This document shows positions 1-12,821 of a stretch of 64,000 nt of DNA, in pieces. The position numbers and the translations under genes were made by a program. The stretch lies in the NCBI GenBank assembly GCA_963922215.1, contig CAWUHY010000001.1, positions 1,246 to 65,245 of the forward strand. Direction: 5' to 3'. How positions within the stretch are numbered: position 1 is the stretch's first letter; each line of letters begins with the position of its first letter. The notes beneath the pieces are model-generated. The model was not told where the DNA came from and made no database searches. It saw only the letters and a list, made by a program, of their open reading frames with translations. The stretch is from an uncultured Gammaproteobacteria bacterium. Its GTDB lineage: Bacteria; Pseudomonadota; Gammaproteobacteria; Steroidobacterales; Woeseiaceae.

Positions 1-107
1 GACATACTGATTCTTCAAATGCTGTCCATTGGTCGTCTACTCCGCATATGGTCAGTATACTCACGACACGGCGCCGATCGGTTGGCAGCACTGAAAACGG
101 GAGACTC

Positions 108-1846
<1,739 letters not shown>

Positions 1847-1850
<4 letters not shown>

Positions 1851-3175
1851 GTACCTATCCGCCGTATCCGGAGTATCGTGATAGTGGGGTGGATTGGTTG
1901 GGGGAGGTGCCGGCGGAGTGGGACATCACCAAGTTGAAGAGAGTTGTCGACTTTACGACTGGCTGGACACCGCCTACAGGCGAGTCGCGGTTTTTTTCCG
2001 GAGAAAATCTGTGGGCGAATATTTCTGACCTCAAAGCGCCGCAGATTTCCGATACGGAGAAGCAGATAAGCGATGAGGCGGCATCGGACACGAGGATGCC
2101 GATAGTGCGCGCTGGGTCCTTGCTATTCAGCTTTAAGCTATCGATAGGCCAAGTCGCATTCGCTAGTACTGACATGTACACGAACGAGGCGATCGCTGCA
2201 TTTTCTCCTGACCAAGGTGTCGACCTTGGCTTTGCTTATTATGCCTTTCCATTGATGATTCCGAGAAACGCTGAAACGAACATATATGGCGCGAAGCTTC
2301 TGAGTCGAGACCGGATTCGCAATGCAGCGATCCTGTTACCACCAGCTAAAGTGCAAAAGTCAGTTGCAGATTTTCTGGACAGAATCACGGCCGATATAGA
2401 TCGCTTGATTTCGGAGCAACAGCGCCTGATTGGTTTGCTGCAGGAAAAACGCCAGGCCGTAATTAGCCACGCGGTGACGAAGGGCCTGAATCCGGATGCG
2501 CCGATGAAGCTGTCGGGCGTTGAGTGGTTGGGTGAGGTGCCGGCGCATTGGGATGTTACACGTGTTGGCTGGACCCTTACAAAAATTTCGTATGGCTTTA
2601 CTAACCCGATGCCAACAGAAGATGAAGGTCCATATCTACTTACAGCAAACGATATTGCCATGGGATTTGTTCGATACGATAGCGCCAGACGGACATCTGG
2701 AGAAGCTTTCTCTAACTTGCTGACCGAAAAAAGCAGACCGAAGAAGGGTGACATTCTTCTCACAAAAGATGGAACGCTTGGTCGGGTGGCCATCCACGAT
2801 GGATCCGACGCATGCATCAATCAGTCAGTCGCGCTGCTGCGCCCCGAAGTGGAAACAGCGAGCAGCGAGTTTCTCGCTCGCTTGCTCATGGGGGGCATTT
2901 ATCAAGCTCGCATGATCTACGAGGCCGGTGGAACTACTATCAAGCACATTTACATCTCCCGGCTAGCGAAAATGCCGATAGCGCTTCCGCCGCAGTCGGA
3001 GCAGGAACAGATAGTGAGCTTCCTTAGGGAGTCTACAGCTCGCTTTGACCATGCAATCGACAGATGTGAGGCATCGATCGATTTGCTTGAGCAGAGACGC
3101 AGTGCACTGATCTCTGCTGCGGTGACGGGAAAAATTGATGTCCGGGACTTTTCAGCCGGCAAGGCCGTTGCATGA
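1847..3175 (+). CDS. hsdS: Type I restriction-modification system specificity subunit HsdS (two target-recognition domains)
   Basis: 442 aa. Two variable halves each begin with GV(D/E)WLGEVPA.W. Each is followed by a conserved helical spacer (QRLIGLLQEKRQAVISHAVTKGL and IDLLEQRRSALISAAVTGKIDV). GC is visibly lower than in hsdM/hsdR. Overlapping start/stop on both sides (GTGA, ATGA). Confidence 0.92.
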
Positions 3176-6100
3176 GCGGAGTCGAAACCGTCCATCGCGA
3201 GGTTCACTTTGAGGATCACATCTTCGAGTATCTGACCGCTTCGTTGCCTGAGGACGAAAGGTGGTTGGCCGGCGATCCGGCGGCATATGACAAGGCTCGA
3301 GCGTTGTACGCTGAAGATATCGTCGGGTGGCTTCGCGAGACGGCACCGGAACAGTGGGTGAAGATTGAACGATTGCACGGCGACAGCACCGAACGGCGCG
3401 TGCTGGACGCGTTGGCGAAGAAGCTCGGCAACCGCGAGACAGGCGGGACGCTGGAGGTTTTACGGCGTGGCTTCTCGATGGCCGGTGCAGGCACACTGCA
3501 GATGAGCCAGAGCCTGCCAGAGGAGGGCCGCAACGAGGCTGTGTTGCGGCGCTACCGGGCGCATCGGCTGCGAGTCGTGCGGCAACTCAAATACAACCCA
3601 GCCCGGGAATGGTCGGTCGACCTCGTGTTCTTCGTCAACGGCATCCCGGTGGCGACCTGGGAGGTGAAGAGCGACTTCACGCAGGACGTCGAGTCGGCCA
3701 TCGCGCAGTACAAACGAGACCGTTCGCCTAGGTCGCCGACCGGGGGCGACGAGCCGCTGCTCGCGTTCCAGCGGGGCGCGCTCGTGCACTTCGCCGTATC
3801 GACGACCCAGGCGTGGATGTGCACGAAGCTCGAGGGCGACGACAGTTACTTTCTGCCATTCAACCAAGGCAATCACGGTGGTGCCGGAAACCCGCCGCAG
3901 CCGCCCGGCAGCGACCGCTATCCGGTCGCCTACCTGTGGGAGGAGACGTTCCGCCGCGACAACCTGTTGCGGCTGATCCACCGCTTCTTCATGTTCCAGC
4001 GGGAACGCCGCGAGGATGCGTCGGGCAAACGCTACTGGCAGGAGATCATGTTCTTCCCGCGCTACCACCAGTGGCAGGCCGTGACCCAACTGGACCGGGC
4101 CGTGCGCGAGGAAGGCGTCGGGCAGCGCTACCTGCTGGAGCACAGCGCGGGCTCCGGCAAGACGATGACCATCGCTTGGCTATGCCATTCGCTGATCCGG
4201 ATGAAGGCCGAGAGCGGAGACGACCTATTCTCGTCAGTAATTGTCGTAACAGATCGGACGGTGCTCGACGACCAGCTGCGCGAAGCGATTCAGCAGATCG
4301 ATCATCAACAAGGGGTGGTCGCGGGCATCGAACGGGACAAAGGATTCGGAGGAGTACCGAAGAGCCAGCGGCTCGCAGAGGCGCTGCTGGCCGGCACGCC
4401 AATCGTCACCGTGACCATACAGACCTTCCCGTACGCGCTGGAGGCCATCGCCGGCGAAGGCGGGCTGGCCGGGCGCAACTTCGCCGTCGTCATCGACGAG
4501 GCGCACACGTCGCAGACCGGGCAGGCCGCCAGCAAGCTGCGCGCGGCGCTGACCATCGATCCTGAAGAGGCGAAATCGCTGATGCCCGATGAGGTCATGG
4601 GCATGCTACAGGACAAGCGTCTGTTTCCGCCAAACGTCTCCTATTTCGCGTTCACGGCGACGCCCAAGCACGAGACGCTGACGCTGTTCGGGCGACCCGA
4701 TGCCGACGGTAAGCCGCGGTGCTTTCACCTCTACAGCATGCGCCAGGCGATCGAGGAACGCTTCATCCTGGACGTGCTGCGTGGCTACATGCCGTATCGC
4801 GTCGCCCGCAAGCTCTCCGAGGCTGTTGAGAAGGACGAGCGGGTGGATGCCAAGCAGGCCTCCCGGGCACTTGCACGCTGGACCGCGCTGCATCCGACTA
4901 ATGTCTCGCAGAAGATCGAATTCATCGTCGAGCACTTCCGACGCAACGTCGCGCACCTGCTAGATCACAGTGCGAAGGCGATGATCGTCTCCACCTCGCG
5001 CGCACAAGCTGTGATGTACAAGCATGCATTCGATGACTATGTGCGACGGCAGGGCTATGCAGACTTGAGTGCACTTATCGCCTTCTCAGGAACGGTGTCC
5101 GGCGACAGCGCACCCTTGGCGGAGCATTATCCGGCGCTTTCCGGTGCCGAGTTTACTGAGGCGTCATTGAACGACGTGACGGGTGATCTGAGGCAAGCTT
5201 TCGATACGGATGGCTACCAAGTGATGATCGTTGCTAACAAGTTTCAGACGGGCTTCGATCAGCCAAAGCTTTGCGCGATGTATCTCGACAAGCGGGTATC
5301 CGGCGTTGAGGCCGTGCAGACGCTGTCGCGCCTGAATCGGATGAAGTCGGGTAAGGACACGACCTTCGTTATTGATTTTGCCAATGATCCAGCGGAGATC
5401 GTCAAGGCGTTCCGCATTTATTTCGAACAGGCTGAAGTCAGCGAGCCGCAGGATCTTGATGTTATCTATGAGCTCAAGGACAGGTTGGACCAGTCGGGGC
5501 TTTACATGCCACAGGAGGTCAATGCGGTCGCCGGCATTCTTGCCGGGACGCTGGATGCTTCGAAGGCCAATGCGAAGCTGATCAATGCGGTCGAGCCGGC
5601 AGTTAGGCGATTTAACGAGAAACTGAAGGAATTGAACGACACAGTCGCGCGTTGGGAGATAACCGTAGCGCAGGCCGACGCACGCGGCGATGCCAAGGCG
5701 GGCGAAGAGGCTGAGGCGCGGCGTTCGGAATACGCGAAGGAACGCGACGGACTTATGCAGCTACGCGACGGCATGCGGAAGTTCGTGAGGTTGTATCAGT
5801 ACATCGCGCAGGTGGTGCCGCTAGCCGATGCGTCCCTTGAGAAGCTCGTGCGGTTCATTCGGCTTTATGTGAAGCGACTTCAGAACGTGCCTATGCGGGA
5901 CATCGATCTGGCCGGGCTGGAAATGACGCATTACAAAATCCTCGAGCGTCCGAACGTGGATACCGACTTGGGCGCGCAAGAGGACGCTACGCTTCGGCCC
6001 GCCAAAGGAACAATCAGCGAAGGCCGGGATCGGCAGCGGGAAAGAATTAGCGAAATCATCGCGGCCGTGAATCGAATATTCGGGGAAGGCGCGACTGAGG

Positions 6101-6396
6101 CGCAACAGCTGAAACGGATTGGTGTTTTGGCGGCTATGGGTGAAAGCTTGCGACGCAACGGCACGGTGCGAGCCCAGATTGATGCCGGCAATAGCGACGA
6201 CCAGATCATGCAAGCCGGAGACGCCGTAGACGAAGTTCGTCGTCAGGTGATCGACCAGATGCTGAATAGCACGGACCAGGCGGATGCCGAACGATTACTC
6301 TCAGATCGTGAAAATCTGATCCGGTTTGCGACCGTGGCGCTGAAGTTGGCGAGAGGTGATGTAGATACACAGGCACTGTTGGAGTCTATGTCCTGA
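3172..6396 (+). CDS. hsdR: Type I restriction enzyme endonuclease/translocase subunit HsdR
   Basis: 1074 aa. N-terminal PD-(D/E)xK nuclease motif (SVDLVFF ... WEVK), Walker A HSAGSGKT, DEAH box VIDEAH, helicase C-terminal region (FQTGFDQPKL, TLSRLNR), and a long helical C-terminal region. Confidence 0.95.
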   Translation: MSGVETVHREVHFEDHIFEYLTASLPEDERWLAGDPAAYDKARALYAEDIVGWLRETAPEQWVKIERLHGDSTERRVLDALAKKLGNRETGGTLEVLRRGFSMAGAGTLQMSQSLPEEGRNEAVLRRYRAHRLRVVRQLKYNPAREWSVDLVFFVNGIPVATWEVKSDFTQDVESAIAQYKRDRSPRSPTGGDEPLLAFQRGALVHFAVSTTQAWMCTKLEGDDSYFLPFNQGNHGGAGNPPQPPGSDRYPVAYLWEETFRRDNLLRLIHRFFMFQRERREDASGKRYWQEIMFFPRYHQWQAVTQLDRAVREEGVGQRYLLEHSAGSGKTMTIAWLCHSLIRMKAESGDDLFSSVIVVTDRTVLDDQLREAIQQIDHQQGVVAGIERDKGFGGVPKSQRLAEALLAGTPIVTVTIQTFPYALEAIAGEGGLAGRNFAVVIDEAHTSQTGQAASKLRAALTIDPEEAKSLMPDEVMGMLQDKRLFPPNVSYFAFTATPKHETLTLFGRPDADGKPRCFHLYSMRQAIEERFILDVLRGYMPYRVARKLSEAVEKDERVDAKQASRALARWTALHPTNVSQKIEFIVEHFRRNVAHLLDHSAKAMIVSTSRAQAVMYKHAFDDYVRRQGYADLSALIAFSGTVSGDSAPLAEHYPALSGAEFTEASLNDVTGDLRQAFDTDGYQVMIVANKFQTGFDQPKLCAMYLDKRVSGVEAVQTLSRLNRMKSGKDTTFVIDFANDPAEIVKAFRIYFEQAEVSEPQDLDVIYELKDRLDQSGLYMPQEVNAVAGILAGTLDASKANAKLINAVEPAVRRFNEKLKELNDTVARWEITVAQADARGDAKAGEEAEARRSEYAKERDGLMQLRDGMRKFVRLYQYIAQVVPLADASLEKLVRFIRLYVKRLQNVPMRDIDLAGLEMTHYKILERPNVDTDLGAQEDATLRPAKGTISEGRDRQRERISEIIAAVNRIFGEGATEAQQLKRIGVLAAMGESLRRNGTVRAQIDAGNSDDQIMQAGDAVDEVRRQVIDQMLNSTDQADAERLLSDRENLIRFATVALKLARGDVDTQALLESMS

Positions 6397-7244
6397 TGAG
6401 TAACCCGATAACGATCAAGCTTTTCCTCGCTAGCGGCCGATCCACAGGAATTCGCACCGCAGAAATATCGAATTGGTCCGGAATGGCGCTCGCTGCACCG
6501 AAGACAGAGTTCCCGGCATTTTTGGCTCGGCCGGAACTGGAGGGTAGCGGAGTCTATTTTCTGATTGGACAGGATCCCGCTTCTGGCAACAACGCTGTAT
6601 ATATCGGTGAGGCAGAGACTTTACGCAAAAGACTCCCGACCCATCGCGACAAGGACTTTTGGGTTCAGGTCGTCGTTTTTACAAGTAAGGATCAGAACCT
6701 TAGCAAGGCGCATATCCGATACCTTGAGGGACGGTTGATCTCAATTGCTCAGGAAATCGGCCAGTCCGAAGTTCGAAACACCCAGGCAAGCGGGTCGAAG
6801 TTGTCGGAGTCTGATACAGCCGACATGGAGATCTTCCTCAGCCGCATTCGGCAGCTACTTCCGGTGCTCGGTTCCGGCGTCCTGACGCCAATTGCTGGTC
6901 CAAAGACCGGAAACTCAGATACGGTGCCATTGGTTTGCAGAATTCACGACCTCGAAGCGAGGGGCGAGCGTACAGAGTCAGGCTTCGTTGTTTTTTCCGG
7001 TTCTCAAGCAGTGCGAGAGGACCGTCCGTCAGCCGGAGCATGGTCGATAGAACTTCGCAAACTCCTCCTCGAAAAAGGAGTATTGGTCGATAAGGGCGAT
7101 CACTTACATTTCGAGAAAGACTACGAGTTTTCCAGCCCCAGTGCCGCTGCCGGTCTAATTCGTGGTGGTAATACCAACGGTTTAACGTCCTGGCGTCATC
7201 CTACTACTGGCGAACGGCTTAGGGAGATTGAGTCTGGTGAATGA
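6396..7244 (+). CDS. GIY-YIG nuclease-like N-terminal domain fused to a DUF4357-like C-terminal domain; R-M-associated accessory protein
   Basis: 282 aa. GIY-YIG-like motifs GVYFLIG ... AVYIGEAETLRKRL. The C-terminal part (GFVVFSGSQA ... SPSAAAGLIRGGNTNGLTSW) resembles DUF4357. ATG overlaps the hsdR stop by 1 nt (TGATG). Confidence 0.75.
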   Translation: MSNPITIKLFLASGRSTGIRTAEISNWSGMALAAPKTEFPAFLARPELEGSGVYFLIGQDPASGNNAVYIGEAETLRKRLPTHRDKDFWVQVVVFTSKDQNLSKAHIRYLEGRLISIAQEIGQSEVRNTQASGSKLSESDTADMEIFLSRIRQLLPVLGSGVLTPIAGPKTGNSDTVPLVCRIHDLEARGERTESGFVVFSGSQAVREDRPSAGAWSIELRKLLLEKGVLVDKGDHLHFEKDYEFSSPSAAAGLIRGGNTNGLTSWRHPTTGERLREIESGE

Positions 7245-8086
7245 GAGTTTGCTTTCGTGCTGTCTCAGATGTGGCGCAAAGGATGACAGCAACCATATTG
7301 CGGTATGGGCTCTTTTCTCCGCGTATTCCAATCGCACGTACACTCCGCTGCCACCATCAGGGCGGCCACCACCGCATAATGCTCAAATAGCTTCCGACGA
7401 TTTTTTGCCTCGCGTTCTGCAAGCAGCGGCACTGAACAGGGCGTGAGGCGACTTGAAATAGGCGGAGTTCTCACGACTCCCGCACGGAAATTCGCACAGC
7501 AAGTCGAGCGGGCGAAGCCGGCATTTAGTTAAACGGTTTCATCGTTTCCGCAAGCACCAGGGAGGCGACTTGCACTCTCTCAGTATTCTTTCGCGCATCT
7601 CTTTCGGCGCAGGTTATTACTCAAAACGACCTAGGGTCTAGTGGCGACCAAAGGGACTATTCACCGGCGTCGGCTGAAGCTCTAGATCTGCTAGTAATTG
7701 CCGAAGAATTGATAGCAGTGGACTCCGCCAACACTCTACCGCGTCGTGAGTTGGAGGCTGTTCATATTCTGCGCCTGTTTTCTAACTTCCGGTGGCCGGC
7801 TCATCTCATTCTTCTTCAAAAATTTTTGTGTTTCGAAGTCGGCGCCGCTATCAACGTTTAGCAGCATCAGGTGTCGGTATATGTGACAGGCTACACGCAA
7901 ATTCCTCTATTGATCCAGTACTGTCGACAAAGGCGCCCAGTCAGCCGGTGGTTGCTGTGAGCGTCAGATATCCTTGACCTCCCTATGGCCAGTCAAATTT
8001 AAACGGACTATCGCCAATTAAATGTACGAGTGCGGATGTAGATCAGCCAGCAAGCAATTCGTACCAGCGTGGATCGGAGTAACACA

Positions 8087-8830
8087 GTGCCAGTAAAATC
8101 GATTGTGATACTCGCGAACTCGTTTAAGCACCGTCGCCGCTGCATAGCTGGGAAAGAGGTTCACCAATCTGCGAATAACCGTTGGCGCCTTACGCAGGAT
8201 TGGTATCGGCCGGTCACAATCGACACCGCAACGCACGGCGCAGTTGATTTGGCAACGTGCACCGACCGAGCGTCCGGACGCGAATTCCGACTAATGGATA
8301 TAGTCGAAATAGAATTCGATGCACCAGCGCCGGAACAAGGTCAGCCGGAGAACTGGACATTCAACGCCGATTCTCCGTGGACCAAAGTGGGTCGTTTTCA
8401 AGCAGCCGTGGCGCTTAACTTATTGGACAGGCCATCCGACGTTTGGAACGACCCTTTCTCTGCGAACATAAGCTTGGTGAGCGAGGCTTACACAGTTGCG
8501 GGCCAGGTTGAGCAGTCGCTCGCATTGATTCAACCGGAAGAGTTTAGGTTGAATCTGAGCAATGACCACAACCCGTGGGATTGTGGGTACAAGAGAAAGT
8601 TGCGCGCAGCGTTCGTTTACAATGGTGTCGAGTACTCGGGGATCGGAGTAACCGATCCGAACGTATGGCGCTATTGTGAAGACCGATTTCCGGGGCCGGG
8701 CCACCCTAGCGAAGAAATTACACTACCAGGTGGAGACAGGTACAGCCTTTGCCTGTCGCTTGCTCCGCCTTTTCCTGACAACAACAACACCCAGTCAAAG
8801 CTCGTCGCTGGTGTTATTAAGCAACGCTAA
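8087..8830 (+). CDS. Hypothetical protein, first gene of four-gene cassette (N-terminal S.K....CIAG / W.RPV motifs; no family recognised)
   Basis: ORF 8069..8830 (GTG). An in-frame GTG at 8087 has GGAG 8 nt upstream and is preferred. No TM segment or signal peptide seen. Sits in an AT-rich context. 18-nt gap to the next gene. Confidence 0.7.
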   Translation: MPVKSIVILANSFKHRRRCIAGKEVHQSANNRWRLTQDWYRPVTIDTATHGAVDLATCTDRASGREFRLMDIVEIEFDAPAPEQGQPENWTFNADSPWTKVGRFQAAVALNLLDRPSDVWNDPFSANISLVSEAYTVAGQVEQSLALIQPEEFRLNLSNDHNPWDCGYKRKLRAAFVYNGVEYSGIGVTDPNVWRYCEDRFPGPGHPSEEITLPGGDRYSLCLSLAPPFPDNNNTQSKLVAGVIKQR

Positions 8831-8847
8831 TTCCAGGTCGTGTAGAC

Positions 8848-9288
8848 ATGAATACATTTACTATCGGTTTTACCAAAAAGAGCGCCGAAGACTTTTTCAG
8901 TTATCTTCGCCAGAACAATGTCGTTCGGTTGATCGATGTTCGTCTGAACAATGTCTCGCAACTGGCCGGCTTTGCGAAACGAGATGATCTGAGATTCTTT
9001 CTTTCGGAGATTTGCGGCGCAGACTACTTGCACGTCCCAGACCTCGCGCCAACAAAAGATTTACTCGACGCATATAAAAAGAAGAATATTCCTTGGGTTC
9101 AGTACGAAGATCAGTTTCTTAACCTAATGGCCAAAAGAAACATCGAGCGCATAATTGACCGATCTACTCTTGATCGCGGCTGCCTTTTGTGTAGCGAACA
9201 CGAACCTCATCACTGCCACCGGCGGCTTGTAGTGGATTACTTAAACGATTCGTGGGGATCGATCTTAAAGGTTAAGCACCTGTATTGA
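8848..9288 (+). CDS. DUF488 family protein
   Basis: 146 aa. N-terminal FTIGFTKKS...LIDVR and C-terminal LLCSEHEPHHCHRRLVVDYL match the DUF488 signature (IGH/DVR ... C.E....CHR). Confidence 0.8.
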   Translation: MNTFTIGFTKKSAEDFFSYLRQNNVVRLIDVRLNNVSQLAGFAKRDDLRFFLSEICGADYLHVPDLAPTKDLLDAYKKKNIPWVQYEDQFLNLMAKRNIERIIDRSTLDRGCLLCSEHEPHHCHRRLVVDYLNDSWGSILKVKHLY

Positions 9289-9899
9289 TGATGAATACTG
9301 TCCTGATCCTCTATCCTTCCCTGTTTCGATGCAAAAGTAAATTTCGCAGAAAAGTAGTGAACATTACCGCAAAAATGGGTGTTTTCGATGTGGTTTCTCC
9401 ATCCGACCCGAATGGACTAGTAGCGGAGTTTGTAGAGATTAACCCTCAAGCTAAGAATTGCACTATTGAGGTGTATTGGAAGGAAAAGCGTGCGCTAACA
9501 CACGCCATTGTTTTTGACGACGGGGAAGAATTTCCACGAGAGCTCGAATGGCTCCAATTAAATAATGTCCCGACCCGATCAATAAGAACACCGCTTACCA
9601 GAGTCGTAAACATAAAAGACGATCCGGAATATAGTAAGAAAGGAAATACGGCGAGCTATGAGTATATTGGCCGCGGATCGTATTGGGGAAACCCGTATTC
9701 CATGTACGATTCGGGCGAGAGTCGAGAACAAGTTATCGCCAAGTACAAGTACGATTTCGAGCGCGACCTTTTTCCAAACAAGGAAAAGTCGAAAGCCCTT
9801 GGTCTGATCGGCAAAAGACTAGGGTGTTTTTGTAAACCAGCGCCTTGCCACGGAGATGTATTGGCAGACTATCTAAACAGCTACGACGACGGCCAGTGA
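9288..9899 (+). CDS. Unknown N-terminal domain fused to DUF4326 domain
   Basis: ORF 9285..9899 (TTG). ATG 9288 overlaps the upstream stop (TGATG). The C-terminal half (YEYIGRGSYWGNPY ... LIGKRLGCFCKPAPCHGDVLADYL) matches the DUF4326 signature. The first ~100 aa are unassigned. Confidence 0.75.
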   Translation: MMNTVLILYPSLFRCKSKFRRKVVNITAKMGVFDVVSPSDPNGLVAEFVEINPQAKNCTIEVYWKEKRALTHAIVFDDGEEFPRELEWLQLNNVPTRSIRTPLTRVVNIKDDPEYSKKGNTASYEYIGRGSYWGNPYSMYDSGESREQVIAKYKYDFERDLFPNKEKSKALGLIGKRLGCFCKPAPCHGDVLADYLNSYDDGQ

Positions 9900-9917
9900 C
9901 GTCCGCTTCCCCACACA

Positions 9918-11546
9918 ATGTCTGAGAAGAAATCATGGCCCTTGACGATCTTTCTAGCTCGTTCAGATATGGACGCGCCGGAAGACACAATAAAGGTGGA
10001 GGATTCGGCTAAAAGTATTGATTTAGCAATACCCGGATGTGCGCAATCCAAGTTGTACGTTAAGCCGAACACGCCGAAGCAACCAAAGTGGGCAAATCTG
10101 TTCGCGGACAACATAGATGTAAGTGAGATTGGCAAATCGTCAAGTGTTTCGGCAGCGCTATTCGTCAAGATTAAGAACGATTCATTTGTGCTCACTTTCG
10201 GCTATGGACGCCACCTTGTTCGAGAAGATACTTGTGAAGAGCGCTTTGGCCTTATTTGTACGCTGAACTCTGTTCATCCAAATAGTTTGAGATGCGTCGA
10301 CATTCAGTCGCTCGATGCAATTCAAAGTCATTCGCGCATTCAGTCTGGTCTAGAGATCCCCGCTGATCAATTCGGTCTGAACGTTGAGCAGGACATGTTG
10401 AAAGCCGTTGTAGGCGCACCTAGTGACGGAAGCCTCGGCGCACGGATGACTGGAACTGATGCATTGTCTGTGTCGGTGCGGATGGATTTGACGGATCTCG
10501 CAGTCTTACTCCGATCCTATCGGGACCAGTACCACAAGGACCTTAGCGCTACAAACTATGCATGGGTCAACAACATAAATCTAGTTAAGGGTTCATCATC
10601 GTTAGTGCCAGTTCTTGACGAGTATGTTGTTGCAAAGTTCAAAGATGAGGACTATGAGGACCTTTGGTTGGCCATCCCAGAGATCATAGACTGGAATCAT
10701 GTAAGCGGATTCAAGTATCAGGCTGGGGGCAAGGCCATGTACCCCGATATCAATCTCGAAGGCTTTCTTTCAACAATCTCACCAAAAGACGATTTGACCT
10801 GCGATTTGCTTAGGAATCGCAAGGTGTATTGTGTCGACGAGGATCACAACAGGACGGGCAAGTCCTGGTCAATTTACAAGTGTTTGTACGCTGAGGTAGA
10901 GCACGACGGTCAGAAATACATTTTTAACGGAGGGCTCTGGTACCGAGTTGACAAAAATTTTGTAACCAAGACCAATCAAGACTATTCGAAGATCCCAATT
11001 TCTTCGTTATCGCTTCCCCTGTACAGCGGTGGTGGCGAGGGTTCTTATAACCAAAGCGTTGCGGCGACGGACCCTGACAGATTTGATCTATTGGATGATA
11101 AGAAAAAAGTATTTCACGGTGGCGGACATGGCCAAGTAGAAATTTGCGATTTGTTTACAAAAAATCGCGAACTCATTCATGTAAAAAGATACGGAAAATC
11201 AACTGTTTTGAGTCACCTTTTCGCGCAAGGGTTTGTCTCGGGCCAACTACTCCAGCTAGATCCTGAGTTTCGCAAAAAGGTAGCGGGCAAGTTGAGCGAT
11301 GGATTCAGTGAACTAATCGATGTCGACGAAAGACCGGCGGATAAGGCATACACAATCGTTTACGCGATCATAAGCGAATCGATGTCACCGAAATTACACC
11401 TTCCGTTTTTTTCGCGTGTGAACCTTAACAACACTTTTCGCCAATTGGATGGGTTCGGGTACAAAGTGGAGTTGCTAAGGATCGGAGTGGATCCCGAATA
11501 CTCGAAAACGAAGAAACTGCCTCCGGAGAAAGAAAAGAAACTGTGA
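9918..11546 (+). CDS. TIGR04141 (DUF6119) family sporadically distributed protein; possible PD-(D/E)xK-like nuclease core
   Basis: 542 aa. The overall layout and the C-terminal block HGGGHGQVEICDLFTKNRELIHVKRYGKS recall TIGR04141. 18-nt gap after the DUF4326 gene. Last gene of the cassette. Confidence 0.7.
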   Translation: MSEKKSWPLTIFLARSDMDAPEDTIKVEDSAKSIDLAIPGCAQSKLYVKPNTPKQPKWANLFADNIDVSEIGKSSSVSAALFVKIKNDSFVLTFGYGRHLVREDTCEERFGLICTLNSVHPNSLRCVDIQSLDAIQSHSRIQSGLEIPADQFGLNVEQDMLKAVVGAPSDGSLGARMTGTDALSVSVRMDLTDLAVLLRSYRDQYHKDLSATNYAWVNNINLVKGSSSLVPVLDEYVVAKFKDEDYEDLWLAIPEIIDWNHVSGFKYQAGGKAMYPDINLEGFLSTISPKDDLTCDLLRNRKVYCVDEDHNRTGKSWSIYKCLYAEVEHDGQKYIFNGGLWYRVDKNFVTKTNQDYSKIPISSLSLPLYSGGGEGSYNQSVAATDPDRFDLLDDKKKVFHGGGHGQVEICDLFTKNRELIHVKRYGKSTVLSHLFAQGFVSGQLLQLDPEFRKKVAGKLSDGFSELIDVDERPADKAYTIVYAIISESMSPKLHLPFFSRVNLNNTFRQLDGFGYKVELLRIGVDPEYSKTKKLPPEKEKKL

Positions 11547-11846
11547 CCGACACGAGATTGCGTCTTGAATTTTTCGGAAATGGGCTCCGCCGAGTCTCGT
11601 GCGGTGGTACAAACTAATTACAGAGCCCCTTTAATCCAATGAAAAACATAGCCAAAGGCCGACTATCGATCGATTCAGAATCCACGTGTCGGTGATTTGA
11701 TTCCCCCCCTGAGGACCAGTCCGTTCGATCACTCTAGGAATCCGTCGCGGGCACATCCTGAGACTCGCTAACTAGTGAGTTGAATCTCAGGGTTTACGGT
11801 CAGAACTGCTGATGCGGTTCGCCTTGCAGAGAAATAGCCTAAATGC

Positions 11847-12821
11847 TCAGTCTGCATCGTCACAATGCAGCGTTCGAAATCCTGTCGGTGTTGTTCCAAA
11901 CTTCGCTGCGAAGGCAGTACGGAACGCTGCCTCGGAACGGTAGCCGACGGCACTTGTAATCTGCTTGATGGGCATGCCGGCCTGGAGCAGGTCTCGTGCT
12001 CGGGTCAGGCGAGCATTCTCTATGTACTTGGCTGGCGGCTCGCCCATTGCGGCAGAAAACTTCCGAAAGAAAGTGCGTTCGCTCATACCTGATTTCTCCG
12101 CGAGATCCGCAATACGGATCGGCTGGCTGAGGTTTTTGTCGATCCAGCGAAGCGAATCCTCGAACGGGTGTCCGGACTTTGTCTGTGCTTTCAGGACGTC
12201 AGAGAACTGCGATTGATTTCCCGGGCGATGGGAATACACGACAAGCATTCTCGACACGAATGTCCGCGCCTCAGATCCAAAATCTCGCTCCAGCATCGCG
12301 AGCGCCATATCAATGCCGCTGGTGACGCCCGCAGACGTCCAGACGCCGTCGTCTTCGACGTAGATCGCGTCCTCGTTCAAGTCGACGTTGGGATACGTCC
12401 GCTTGAATTCATTGCACGCGCCCCAGTGCGTCGCTACCGTTCTGCCGTCGGCAATACCGGCGCTCGCGATCACAAAACTGCCTGTGCAAACGGACGCGAT
12501 CCGCGACCCGGCCGACCGAGCCTCGCGAAGCCAGTCGCGGAGTTCTGAATCCTTGCAAACCTCTTCCACTGCGGTCTTGAAGCCGCCGGTTACGATGACA
12601 GTGTCATTCCGGCCTGGATGAGCTTTTCGAACTGGGCTGGACTGGATCGTGACGCCCTCGAAACTCTCGATATCGCCGCCACTGGATGACACAGGCGTCG
12701 TCCGATACGCGGCCCGCTCAAGAAACTTGTTCGCCGTGGCGAAAACGCTGGCAGGGCCACACAGGTCGAGCAACTCGAACCCTGGATAGGCCACGATGTA
12801 AATCTGTTTCGTCTCGCGCAT
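11847..12821 (-). CDS. GlxA family transcriptional regulator (DJ-1/PfpI domain + AraC-type HTH)
   Basis: 324 aa. N-terminal DJ-1/PfpI-like domain (IASVCTGSFVIASAG). C-terminal AraC HTH (ERTFFRKFSAAMGEPPAKYIENARLTRARDLL ... VGYRSEAAFRTAFAAKFGTTP). Confidence 0.88.
   Translation of the reverse strand: MRETKQIYIVAYPGFELLDLCGPASVFATANKFLERAAYRTTPVSSSGGDIESFEGVTIQSSPVRKAHPGRNDTVIVTGGFKTAVEEVCKDSELRDWLREARSAGSRIASVCTGSFVIASAGIADGRTVATHWGACNEFKRTYPNVDLNEDAIYVEDDGVWTSAGVTSGIDMALAMLERDFGSEARTFVSRMLVVYSHRPGNQSQFSDVLKAQTKSGHPFEDSLRWIDKNLSQPIRIADLAEKSGMSERTFFRKFSAAMGEPPAKYIENARLTRARDLLQAGMPIKQITSAVGYRSEAAFRTAFAAKFGTTPTGFRTLHCDDAD

Follow-up and report, generated by a model that had tools for sequence, protein, structure and literature searches.

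The window analysed here is a 64,000-nt stretch of contig CAWUHY010000001.1, from an uncultured gammaproteobacterium of the Woeseiaceae. Downstream of a type I restriction-modification (R-M) operon it carries four consecutive plus-strand genes at 8069-11546, which a first-pass annotation, made by a model from the letters alone, had taken together as one candidate defence-type system. Comparison with other loci divides them into two units: a three-gene cassette (module A, 8069-9899) and a single gene that occurs elsewhere without it (module B, 9918-11546). The genes are:

8069-8830, plus strand: gene 1, DuOB protein, 253 aa, GTG start
8848-9288, plus strand: gene 2, DUF488-N3a protein, 146 aa
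9285/9288-9899, plus strand: gene 3, mSLOG-DUF4326 fusion protein, 204/203 aa, candidate starts ATG 9288, ATG 9291 and TTG 9285
9918-11546, plus strand: gene 4, DUF6119/TIGR04141 protein, 542 aa

The same four genes were returned by an independent gene caller on the 69.5-kb metagenome scaffold that contains the window, and the four same-strand open reading frames (ORFs) first listed for this interval are all present. The start of gene 4 at 9918 is supported by conservation of the N-terminus from residue 4. Genes 1 and 2 are separated by 17 nt, not the 18 nt first reported; the other two junctions are as described, genes 2 and 3 meeting at TGATG, where the ATG at 9288 overlaps the gene 2 stop by one base, and genes 3 and 4 being separated by 18 nt. 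The G+C content (GC) of genes 1 to 4 is 0.534, 0.449, 0.454 and 0.463, against 0.604 for 12822-64000, with values in 60-nt windows ranging from 0.33 to 0.58. The first-pass annotation thus had the direction of the difference right and its size too large (35-47% versus about 63%).

Loci were collected around gene 3 and around gene 4. A profile of mSLOG-DUF4326 homologues gave 85 gene 3-anchored loci, 80 from metagenomes and five from a viral collection with the full-length fusion. The gene 4-anchored set comprises 44 loci at 27-70% identity; its core is 37 loci found with a DUF6119 profile in contigs from one genome per species (27-58% identity, at most 10 kb per side), and it also took in contigs of the close homologues P0002 (70% identity), P0005 (68%, two contigs), P0003 (67%) and P0004 (68%).

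Genes 1-3 keep company across the gene 3-anchored loci. A DUF488 gene (59-71% identity) lies directly upstream of the gene 3 homologue in 73 of the 75 loci with enough sequence, the two frames overlapping by 4 nt in 34 loci and standing 4 nt apart in 20. DuOB was found upstream of DUF488 by tblastn in 47/58 testable loci, a count that rises to 56/58 when divergent forms are included. Contigs reached from near relatives of gene 3 (58% identity) and gene 1 (43-45%) hold the three-gene unit and no DUF6119, and on Pfam-annotated contigs from Alteromonas australica, Thiomicrorhabdus and several metagenomes the unit is set between unrelated genes. Rare exceptions are L073:7998-8606 and L117:3093-3713, where an mSLOG-DUF4326 gene has no detectable DUF488 or DuOB upstream.

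Gene 4 does not take part in this association. Not one of the 85 gene 3-anchored loci, 35 of which extend 1.8 kb or more downstream, contains DUF6119, and homologues of genes 1-3 are present in none of the 44 DUF6119-anchored loci (searched by tblastn on the 37 genome loci); on the contigs of P0002-P0005, DUF6119 has no DuOB, DUF488 or DUF4326 neighbour. When the two nearest genes on either side were clustered, no conserved further partner emerged for either unit; the largest cluster took in 4 of 57 loci of the cassette and 3 of 39 of DUF6119. The conserved unit is therefore genes 1-3, and gene 4 is independent of it. Module A is a conserved cassette of DuOB, DUF488-N3a and mSLOG-DUF4326, found in the same order and with overlapping or near-touching frames in many unrelated bacteria, its neighbours always differing. 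Module B is a stand-alone DUF6119/TIGR04141 gene that moves on its own, and among the loci examined this contig alone has it beside the cassette. The region 8069-11546 thus very probably consists of two independent mobile modules lying head to tail, 3' of the type I R-M operon and the PDC-S14 gene that follows it, and the unit of study has to be corrected accordingly, 8069-9899 and 9918-11546 being separate units and not one operon.

The first-pass annotation had itself proposed asking whether the four families co-localise in other genomes, and for gene 4 the answer was that they do not. What remains of the case for a single four-gene defence system, with DUF6119 as a nuclease-like effector and the DuOB, DUF488 and DUF4326 proteins as sensors or modifiers, is local: a shared strand, spacings of 17, -1 and 18 nt, the last free of terminator-like sites, similarly low GC (0.45-0.46) in genes 2-4, and the pairing of a cassette with no obvious effector and a protein with an invariant cluster of acidic, His and Lys residues. 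Against these stand the zero counts in both directions, which extend to the closest relatives of each module, the separate and differing neighbourhoods of the two modules, and the occurrence of the cassette alone on a 4.2-kb plasmid; we regard the single system as very improbable. When 7200-12000 was scanned for promoters and terminators, fewer sites came up than in shuffled controls, and none lay between the genes. Because the gap is only 18 nt and holds no terminator-like site, genes 3 and 4 are likely to be co-transcribed by read-through in this contig; beyond that spacing and likely read-through, nothing ties genes 1-3 functionally to gene 4.

Pfam and TIGR matches bear out the assignment of the products to DUF488, DUF4326 and TIGR04141/DUF6119, and they also place the parts that had been left without a family. 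Gene 1, first regarded as an orphan, matches the Pfam family DuOB (PF22557, 'dual OB-containing domain') at 4e-40 (138.4 bits, cut-off 27) over residues 10-249 and the whole profile (1-210 of 210), and PADLOC model PDC-M45A at 6.7e-39. The S.K....CIAG / W.RPV pattern already picked out in it is real and forms the conserved core. Residues S18, K20, C25, A27, G28, W45, R47, Q92 and N95 are conserved in DuOB and all kept in the window copy; C25, R47 and S150 are invariant. DuOB is the fastest-evolving component of the cassette, since mean pairwise identity among 57 cassettes is 0.42 for it, against 0.68 for DUF488 and 0.58 for mSLOG-DUF4326. The best identity of gene 1 to any other sequence found is 59%. 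DuOB has diverged too far for a word-index search, which gave 11 homologous proteins only, and the spread of DuOB was judged by way of the gene 3 loci instead.

A divergent DuOB subfamily (about 234 aa, starting MRKVIITDLTRFS..VCTA..TGECIRP.PY) takes the usual place of DuOB before a typical DUF488 and mSLOG-DUF4326 pair, at L041:419-1120, L067:656-1360, L108:1851-2552 and six similar loci. It was missed both by tblastn and by a hidden Markov model (HMM) built from the main subfamily. The supposition that loci negative by tblastn truly lack DuOB was rejected, given that 9 of those 11 loci hold, at the same position, an ORF of 233-266 aa with an N-terminal C-x-A ... R-P motif.

Gene 2 matches Pfam DUF488 at 4e-25 and, within it, the active subclade DUF488-N3a (PF22751) at 2e-11 (44.5 bits, cut-off 27); its score of 18.2 bits with the inactive DUF488-N3i model is under the cut-off of that model. 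It also matches PADLOC PDC-M45C over its full length at 4.9e-70. The protein belongs to the rhodanese-phosphatase superfamily. Its Cys/His/Arg motif LLCSE...CHRR is intact: C112, C115, E117, C123, H124, R125 and R126 reach 95% conservation or more among cassettes, and all are found in the window copy.

Gene 3 had been read as an unrecognised domain of about 100 aa fused to DUF4326. The former is Pfam mSLOG (PF22565; 9e-31, 106.7 bits, residues 3-108), a minimal SLOG domain with predicted binding of nucleotide ligands, and the latter (PF14216; 3e-18, 66.7 bits, residues 123-194) is again in the rhodanese-phosphatase superfamily. Homologues form 1157 clusters at 90% identity, all of those among the matches listed having both domains, and the best identity of gene 3 to any other sequence found is 61%. 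The invariant motif is YEYIGRG...WGNP...GKRLGCFCKP..CHGD; the conserved C181, C183, C188, H189, G190 and D191 are all kept. Because all conserved residues of genes 1-3 are present, the window copy of the cassette looks functional. Gene 3 matches no PADLOC model at E<=0.01, and sequence and profile searches of PDB sequences gave no match to any of the four proteins.

DUF4326 alone, without mSLOG, DuOB or DUF488, is found in 1572 of 50,697 sequenced phage genomes, T4-like coliphages included, and in many viral contigs. None of these phage matches is the full mSLOG-DUF4326 fusion: 0 of the 1572 reach 80% coverage of gene 3 or cover its mSLOG half. Hosts, plasmids and phages all deploy the DUF4326 enzyme domain.

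The DuOB, mSLOG and DUF488-N3a domains were reportedly defined by Burroughs and Aravind in 2023, for this very gene association. The window proteins pass the curated Pfam cut-offs for it (PF22557, PF22751, PF22565 and PF14216), with Cys/His/Arg motifs intact and with the gene order and tight coupling seen in more than 70 other loci. The window cassette shows no structural difference from the others; it is a diverged member (at most 61% identity for gene 3 and 59% for gene 1) distinguished by the DUF6119 gene 18 nt downstream and the type I R-M operon nearby. The PADLOC-DB v2 comparison, made as matches to models of its HMM library, connects the cassette to the candidate system PDC-M45 through genes 1 and 2 (models A and C). 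No window gene has M45B, a model that resembles DUF488, as its best match; gene 2 hits it only secondarily (7e-14, profile 6-130 of 204). Since there is no primary M45B match and gene 3 matches no PADLOC model, PDC-M45 as modelled either omits the mSLOG-DUF4326 gene or describes a sister variant. The combination is thus not undescribed, as had been proposed: genes 1-3 carry catalogued Pfam domains and genes 1 and 2 match PDC-M45A and PDC-M45C. The locus is neither one system nor a new one, being a catalogued, experimentally unvalidated candidate cassette with a neighbouring uncharacterised gene.

The cassette is widespread (over 1,100 gene 3 clusters at 90% identity) and mobile, and it rides on small Enterobacteriaceae plasmids, one of them with blaCMY-31. 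On NZ_CP056340.1 (L211), a mobilizable Citrobacter plasmid of 4167 bp, it is the only cargo that can be recognised, and DuOB spans the record origin. Plasmid pA172 (NC_010259.1, L212, 8197 bp) has the same backbone, with an ISEcp1-blaCMY-31-blc-sugE unit inserted in the 3' end of DuOB. The cassette is intact on the IncP plasmid pLNU-11 and occurs also on Acinetobacter and Moraxella plasmids and on prophage-type contigs. On Pfam-annotated contigs it often adjoins integrase fragments, transposases, Fic or PIN genes, and its neighbours in chromosomes and metagenomes, varied and with many defence and mobile-element functions among them, include Mrr, integrases, defence-type reverse transcriptases, PIN, RAMP/Cmr1, AbiE, ZorD, DpdE and ABC-3C.

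A conflict or immunity role for the region can reasonably be inferred, and for module A itself we lean slightly towards a role in conflict or defence. A specific mechanism of end processing, drawn from the families and from predictions of the Aravind laboratory, is offered only tentatively. The rapidly evolving dual-OB protein would bind an invader's nucleic acid in single-stranded form or at its ends, and mSLOG would take up a nucleotide or an ADP-ribose-type ligand; DUF488-N3a and DUF4326, both of the cysteine-dependent rhodanese-phosphatase fold, would remove or transfer terminal or sugar-linked phosphates on these ends or ligands, so that invader DNA or RNA would be blocked or marked. The two predicted enzymes, whose cysteine/His motifs are intact, would themselves be the effector, because the cassette encodes no separate toxic one. 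The RapZ-C/DUF488/DUF4326 clade was reportedly predicted, in the abstract of Burroughs and Aravind of 2023, to process DNA ends in nucleic-acid-modifying conflict systems. As both candidate enzymes have a cysteine phosphatase fold and are not the usual nucleases or NADases, a role in immunity or counter-immunity would, if true, mean a new biochemical principle. In the literature (PMC9503650, PMC7824862), DUF4326 makes up a clade of rhodanese-phosphatases that occurs in fusions with SLOG, Macro or NADAR domains; its predicted task is the processing of terminal phosphates carried by the ribose of ADP-ribose, and it is predicted to connect NAD-based signalling with DNA modification.

The carriers of the cassette suggest a different beneficiary. 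Module A could serve the mobile element in counter-defence or self-benefit, and not host immunity: SLOG-DUF4326 and DUF488 would destroy or remodel immune signals derived from nucleotides or ADP-ribose and so shield the carrier plasmid or prophage, or else they would mend DNA or RNA ends that host defences have damaged or ADP-ribosylated. Carriage as the only cargo of the mobilizable plasmid, and on the IncP, Acinetobacter and Moraxella plasmids and prophage-type contigs, agrees with this, as does the wide spread of the DUF4326 domain in lytic phages, the T4-like ones among them. Fusions of SLOG, Macro or NADAR with DUF4326 in jumbo phages and giant viruses share with gene 3 the DUF4326 catalytic domain and its pairing with a nucleotide- or ADP-ribose-binding domain (PMC9503650, PMC7824862), and are predicted to process ADP-ribose derivatives for the virus (PMC9503650). 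In amoeba viruses, homologues of ORF83, an anti-Avs protein that binds AMP and is LOG/SLOG-like, carry DUF4326 at the C-terminus (bioRxiv 10.1101/2025.06.06.658234). The likeness to the viral proteins is partial: phage DUF4326 has 40-47% similarity to gene 3 over the domain, and the viral versions, mostly DUF4326 alone or in other fusions, lack DuOB and DUF488-N3a partners, the full mSLOG-DUF4326 fusion being in no sequenced phage. Chromosomal cassettes, moreover, sit among R-M, CRISPR type III, Zorya and defence-associated reverse transcriptase (DRT) genes, PADLOC captured the cassette genes through their embedding among defence genes, and the fast-evolving DuOB resembles a recognition subunit more than a signal scavenger. 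On this evidence we hold benefit to the element, the main rival reading, to be unlikely as the function of module A.

Less probable still is a housekeeping or stress operon for nucleic-acid repair or nucleotide salvage, its position being incidental. The DUF488 family is broad, and many genomes carry members away from any defence context; rhodanese-phosphatase enzymes act in metabolism too, and modification or repair was the alternative named in the first-pass annotation. Such an operon would hardly be expected to show the sporadic, patchy distribution and foreign GC of this cassette, its carriage on plasmids, the integrases and transposases at its flanks, a rapidly evolving DuOB and no conserved metabolic neighbour.

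Gene 4 is a full-length member of its family, matching DUF6119 (PF19614) at 5e-138 (461.5 bits) and TIGR04141 at 9e-142 (473 bits, cut-off 35; profile 1-516 of 516); it matches no PADLOC model. Among the candidates scored, 1263 clusters fall into the DUF6119 family at E<=1e-5. The family is represented on replicons of rhizobia and Burkholderia and in a single temperate phage of Pseudomonas, and it has a PHROG counterpart whose function is unassigned in PHROG. Like its relatives, gene 4 is a lone gene in variable, defence-rich surroundings. In five loci DUF6119 adjoins type I R-M genes or lies within them: L019 and the four set out below.

L002, 2957-7486: hsdS-hsdM-DUF6119
L004, 387-7492: hsdS-DUF6119-DarT-Macro-hsdR
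L007, 172-9171: YhcG-hsdS-DUF6119-Schlafen-like/HATPase-hsdR
L215, 1-7521: DUF6119 divergent from hsdM-hsdS-M78-DUF4411-hsdR

Other neighbours are GmrSD, AbiEii-like ATPases and resolvases, a variable yet repeatedly defensive company. Defence genes embedded in type I R-M operons are known, PrrC between hsd genes being an example. DUF6119 takes the same kind of slot in L004 (beside DarT-Macro), L007 (beside a Schlafen-like ATPase) and L002, but it has no sequence or fold relationship to PrrC, and the window DUF6119 lies about 3.5 kb beyond hsdR, outside the operon. DarT lies directly 3' of DUF6119 in L004:1762-5160 and L214:1301-4238, with a different antitoxin in each (Macro in one, NADAR in the other), and in the closest DUF6119 homologue, P0002 (70% identity), DarT and NADAR follow downstream. 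This adjacency may reflect a functional link or island clustering only.

The AlphaFold2 model of gene 4 is confident, with a predicted local distance difference test score (pLDDT) of 84.8 and a predicted template modelling score (pTM) of 0.81 at full length and a pLDDT of 88.9 for residues 341-542. Residues 131-145 are the only internal segment of low confidence. Foldseek gave no match at E<=1e-3 for the full-length and C-terminal models against the PDB or for the full-length model against BFVD, and for that reason the label of nuclease was not adopted for DUF6119. The best nuclease-like match was the CdiA-CT DNase 4g6u_A (E about 0.03, probability 0.54-0.63, template modelling score about 0.3; in the comparison with PD-(D/E)xK nucleases, E 0.037, probability 0.54 and template modelling score 0.30-0.32), and Mus81 had a probability of 0.15-0.2. 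The invariant residues E374, E408, D411, H421 and K423 lie on an alpha-beta-beta-beta-alpha segment of the model and may form a C-terminal catalytic centre reminiscent of a nuclease, with E408, D411 and H421-x-K423 differing from the canonical (D/E)xK of PD-(D/E)xK. The chance that module B acts in defence or conflict as a single protein we put at about even. With more than 1,200 clusters, a confident but unmatched predicted structure and type I R-M and DarT loci recurring beside it, DUF6119 is a cheap single-gene candidate for a defence screen.

We favour, with a probability of roughly 0.6, the reading of the whole locus as two juxtaposed conflict modules. Several points weigh against it. No experimental study of any of the four families, or of the cassette, was found in the literature, in line with the earlier remark that none of the four products has an established function, and PDC systems are unvalidated 'guilt-by-embedding' candidates (PMC10855318). 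The cassette has no classical effector, and both its place as sole cargo of small plasmids and the 1572 phage genomes with DUF4326 fit counter-defence or benefit to the element equally well. The nuclease idea for DUF6119 is weak. The defence richness around both modules is a qualitative judgement made with no genome-wide background. Lastly, the mere 18 nt between genes 3 and 4 hold no terminator-like site, and a functional link may have been acquired locally. A stronger form of the favoured reading, in which both modules are mechanistically new immune systems, is doubtful: the cassette, through effector-less phosphotransfer on invader ends, may defend cells or carrier plasmids without a nuclease, NADase or pore effector, and DUF6119 may be a single-protein factor whose fold has no solved counterpart, lodged in type I R-M operons or next to DarT and perhaps cooperating with them.

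Upstream of the two modules the following genes are found:

48-1850, plus strand: hsdM (PADLOC MTase_I, 2e-253)
1847-3175, plus strand: hsdS (PADLOC Specificity_I, 9e-114)
3172-6396, plus strand: hsdR (PADLOC REase_I, 2e-33)
6396-7244, plus strand: PDC-S14/DUF4357 gene (PADLOC PDC-S14, 3e-99; Pfam DUF4357, 4e-18)

The first three form the hsdMSR type I R-M operon (48-6396), with the Pfam domains present too, on the same contig as the modules. The first-pass annotation had recognised hsdMSR correctly and called the gene after it GIY-YIG; that gene matches GIY-YIG (PF01541) only below threshold (E 0.086, 13.6 bits, cut-off 22.6, residues 52-86), its confident matches being DUF4357 and PDC-S14. 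Gene 1 begins 824 nt past its stop, close to the 820 bp first estimated. The type I R-M operon, PDC-S14 and then genes 1-4 at low GC support the description of 8069-11546 as a compositionally foreign stretch in a defence-island setting, which had been proposed from the start, and modules A and B are low-GC insertions in the variable segment that follows the R-M operon. No border of the island was apparent from searches for Rfam families, tRNAs and repeats, which returned neither an RNA gene nor a repeat resembling an attachment site.

The PDC-S14/DUF4357 gene starts at 6396, on the final base of the hsdR stop codon, so that its translation is probably coupled to that of the type I restriction subunit. 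Within hsdS, an imperfect 38-nt direct repeat (1886-1923 and 2516-2553, 84% identity, 630 nt apart) looks like the usual duplicated conserved region between two target-recognition domains.

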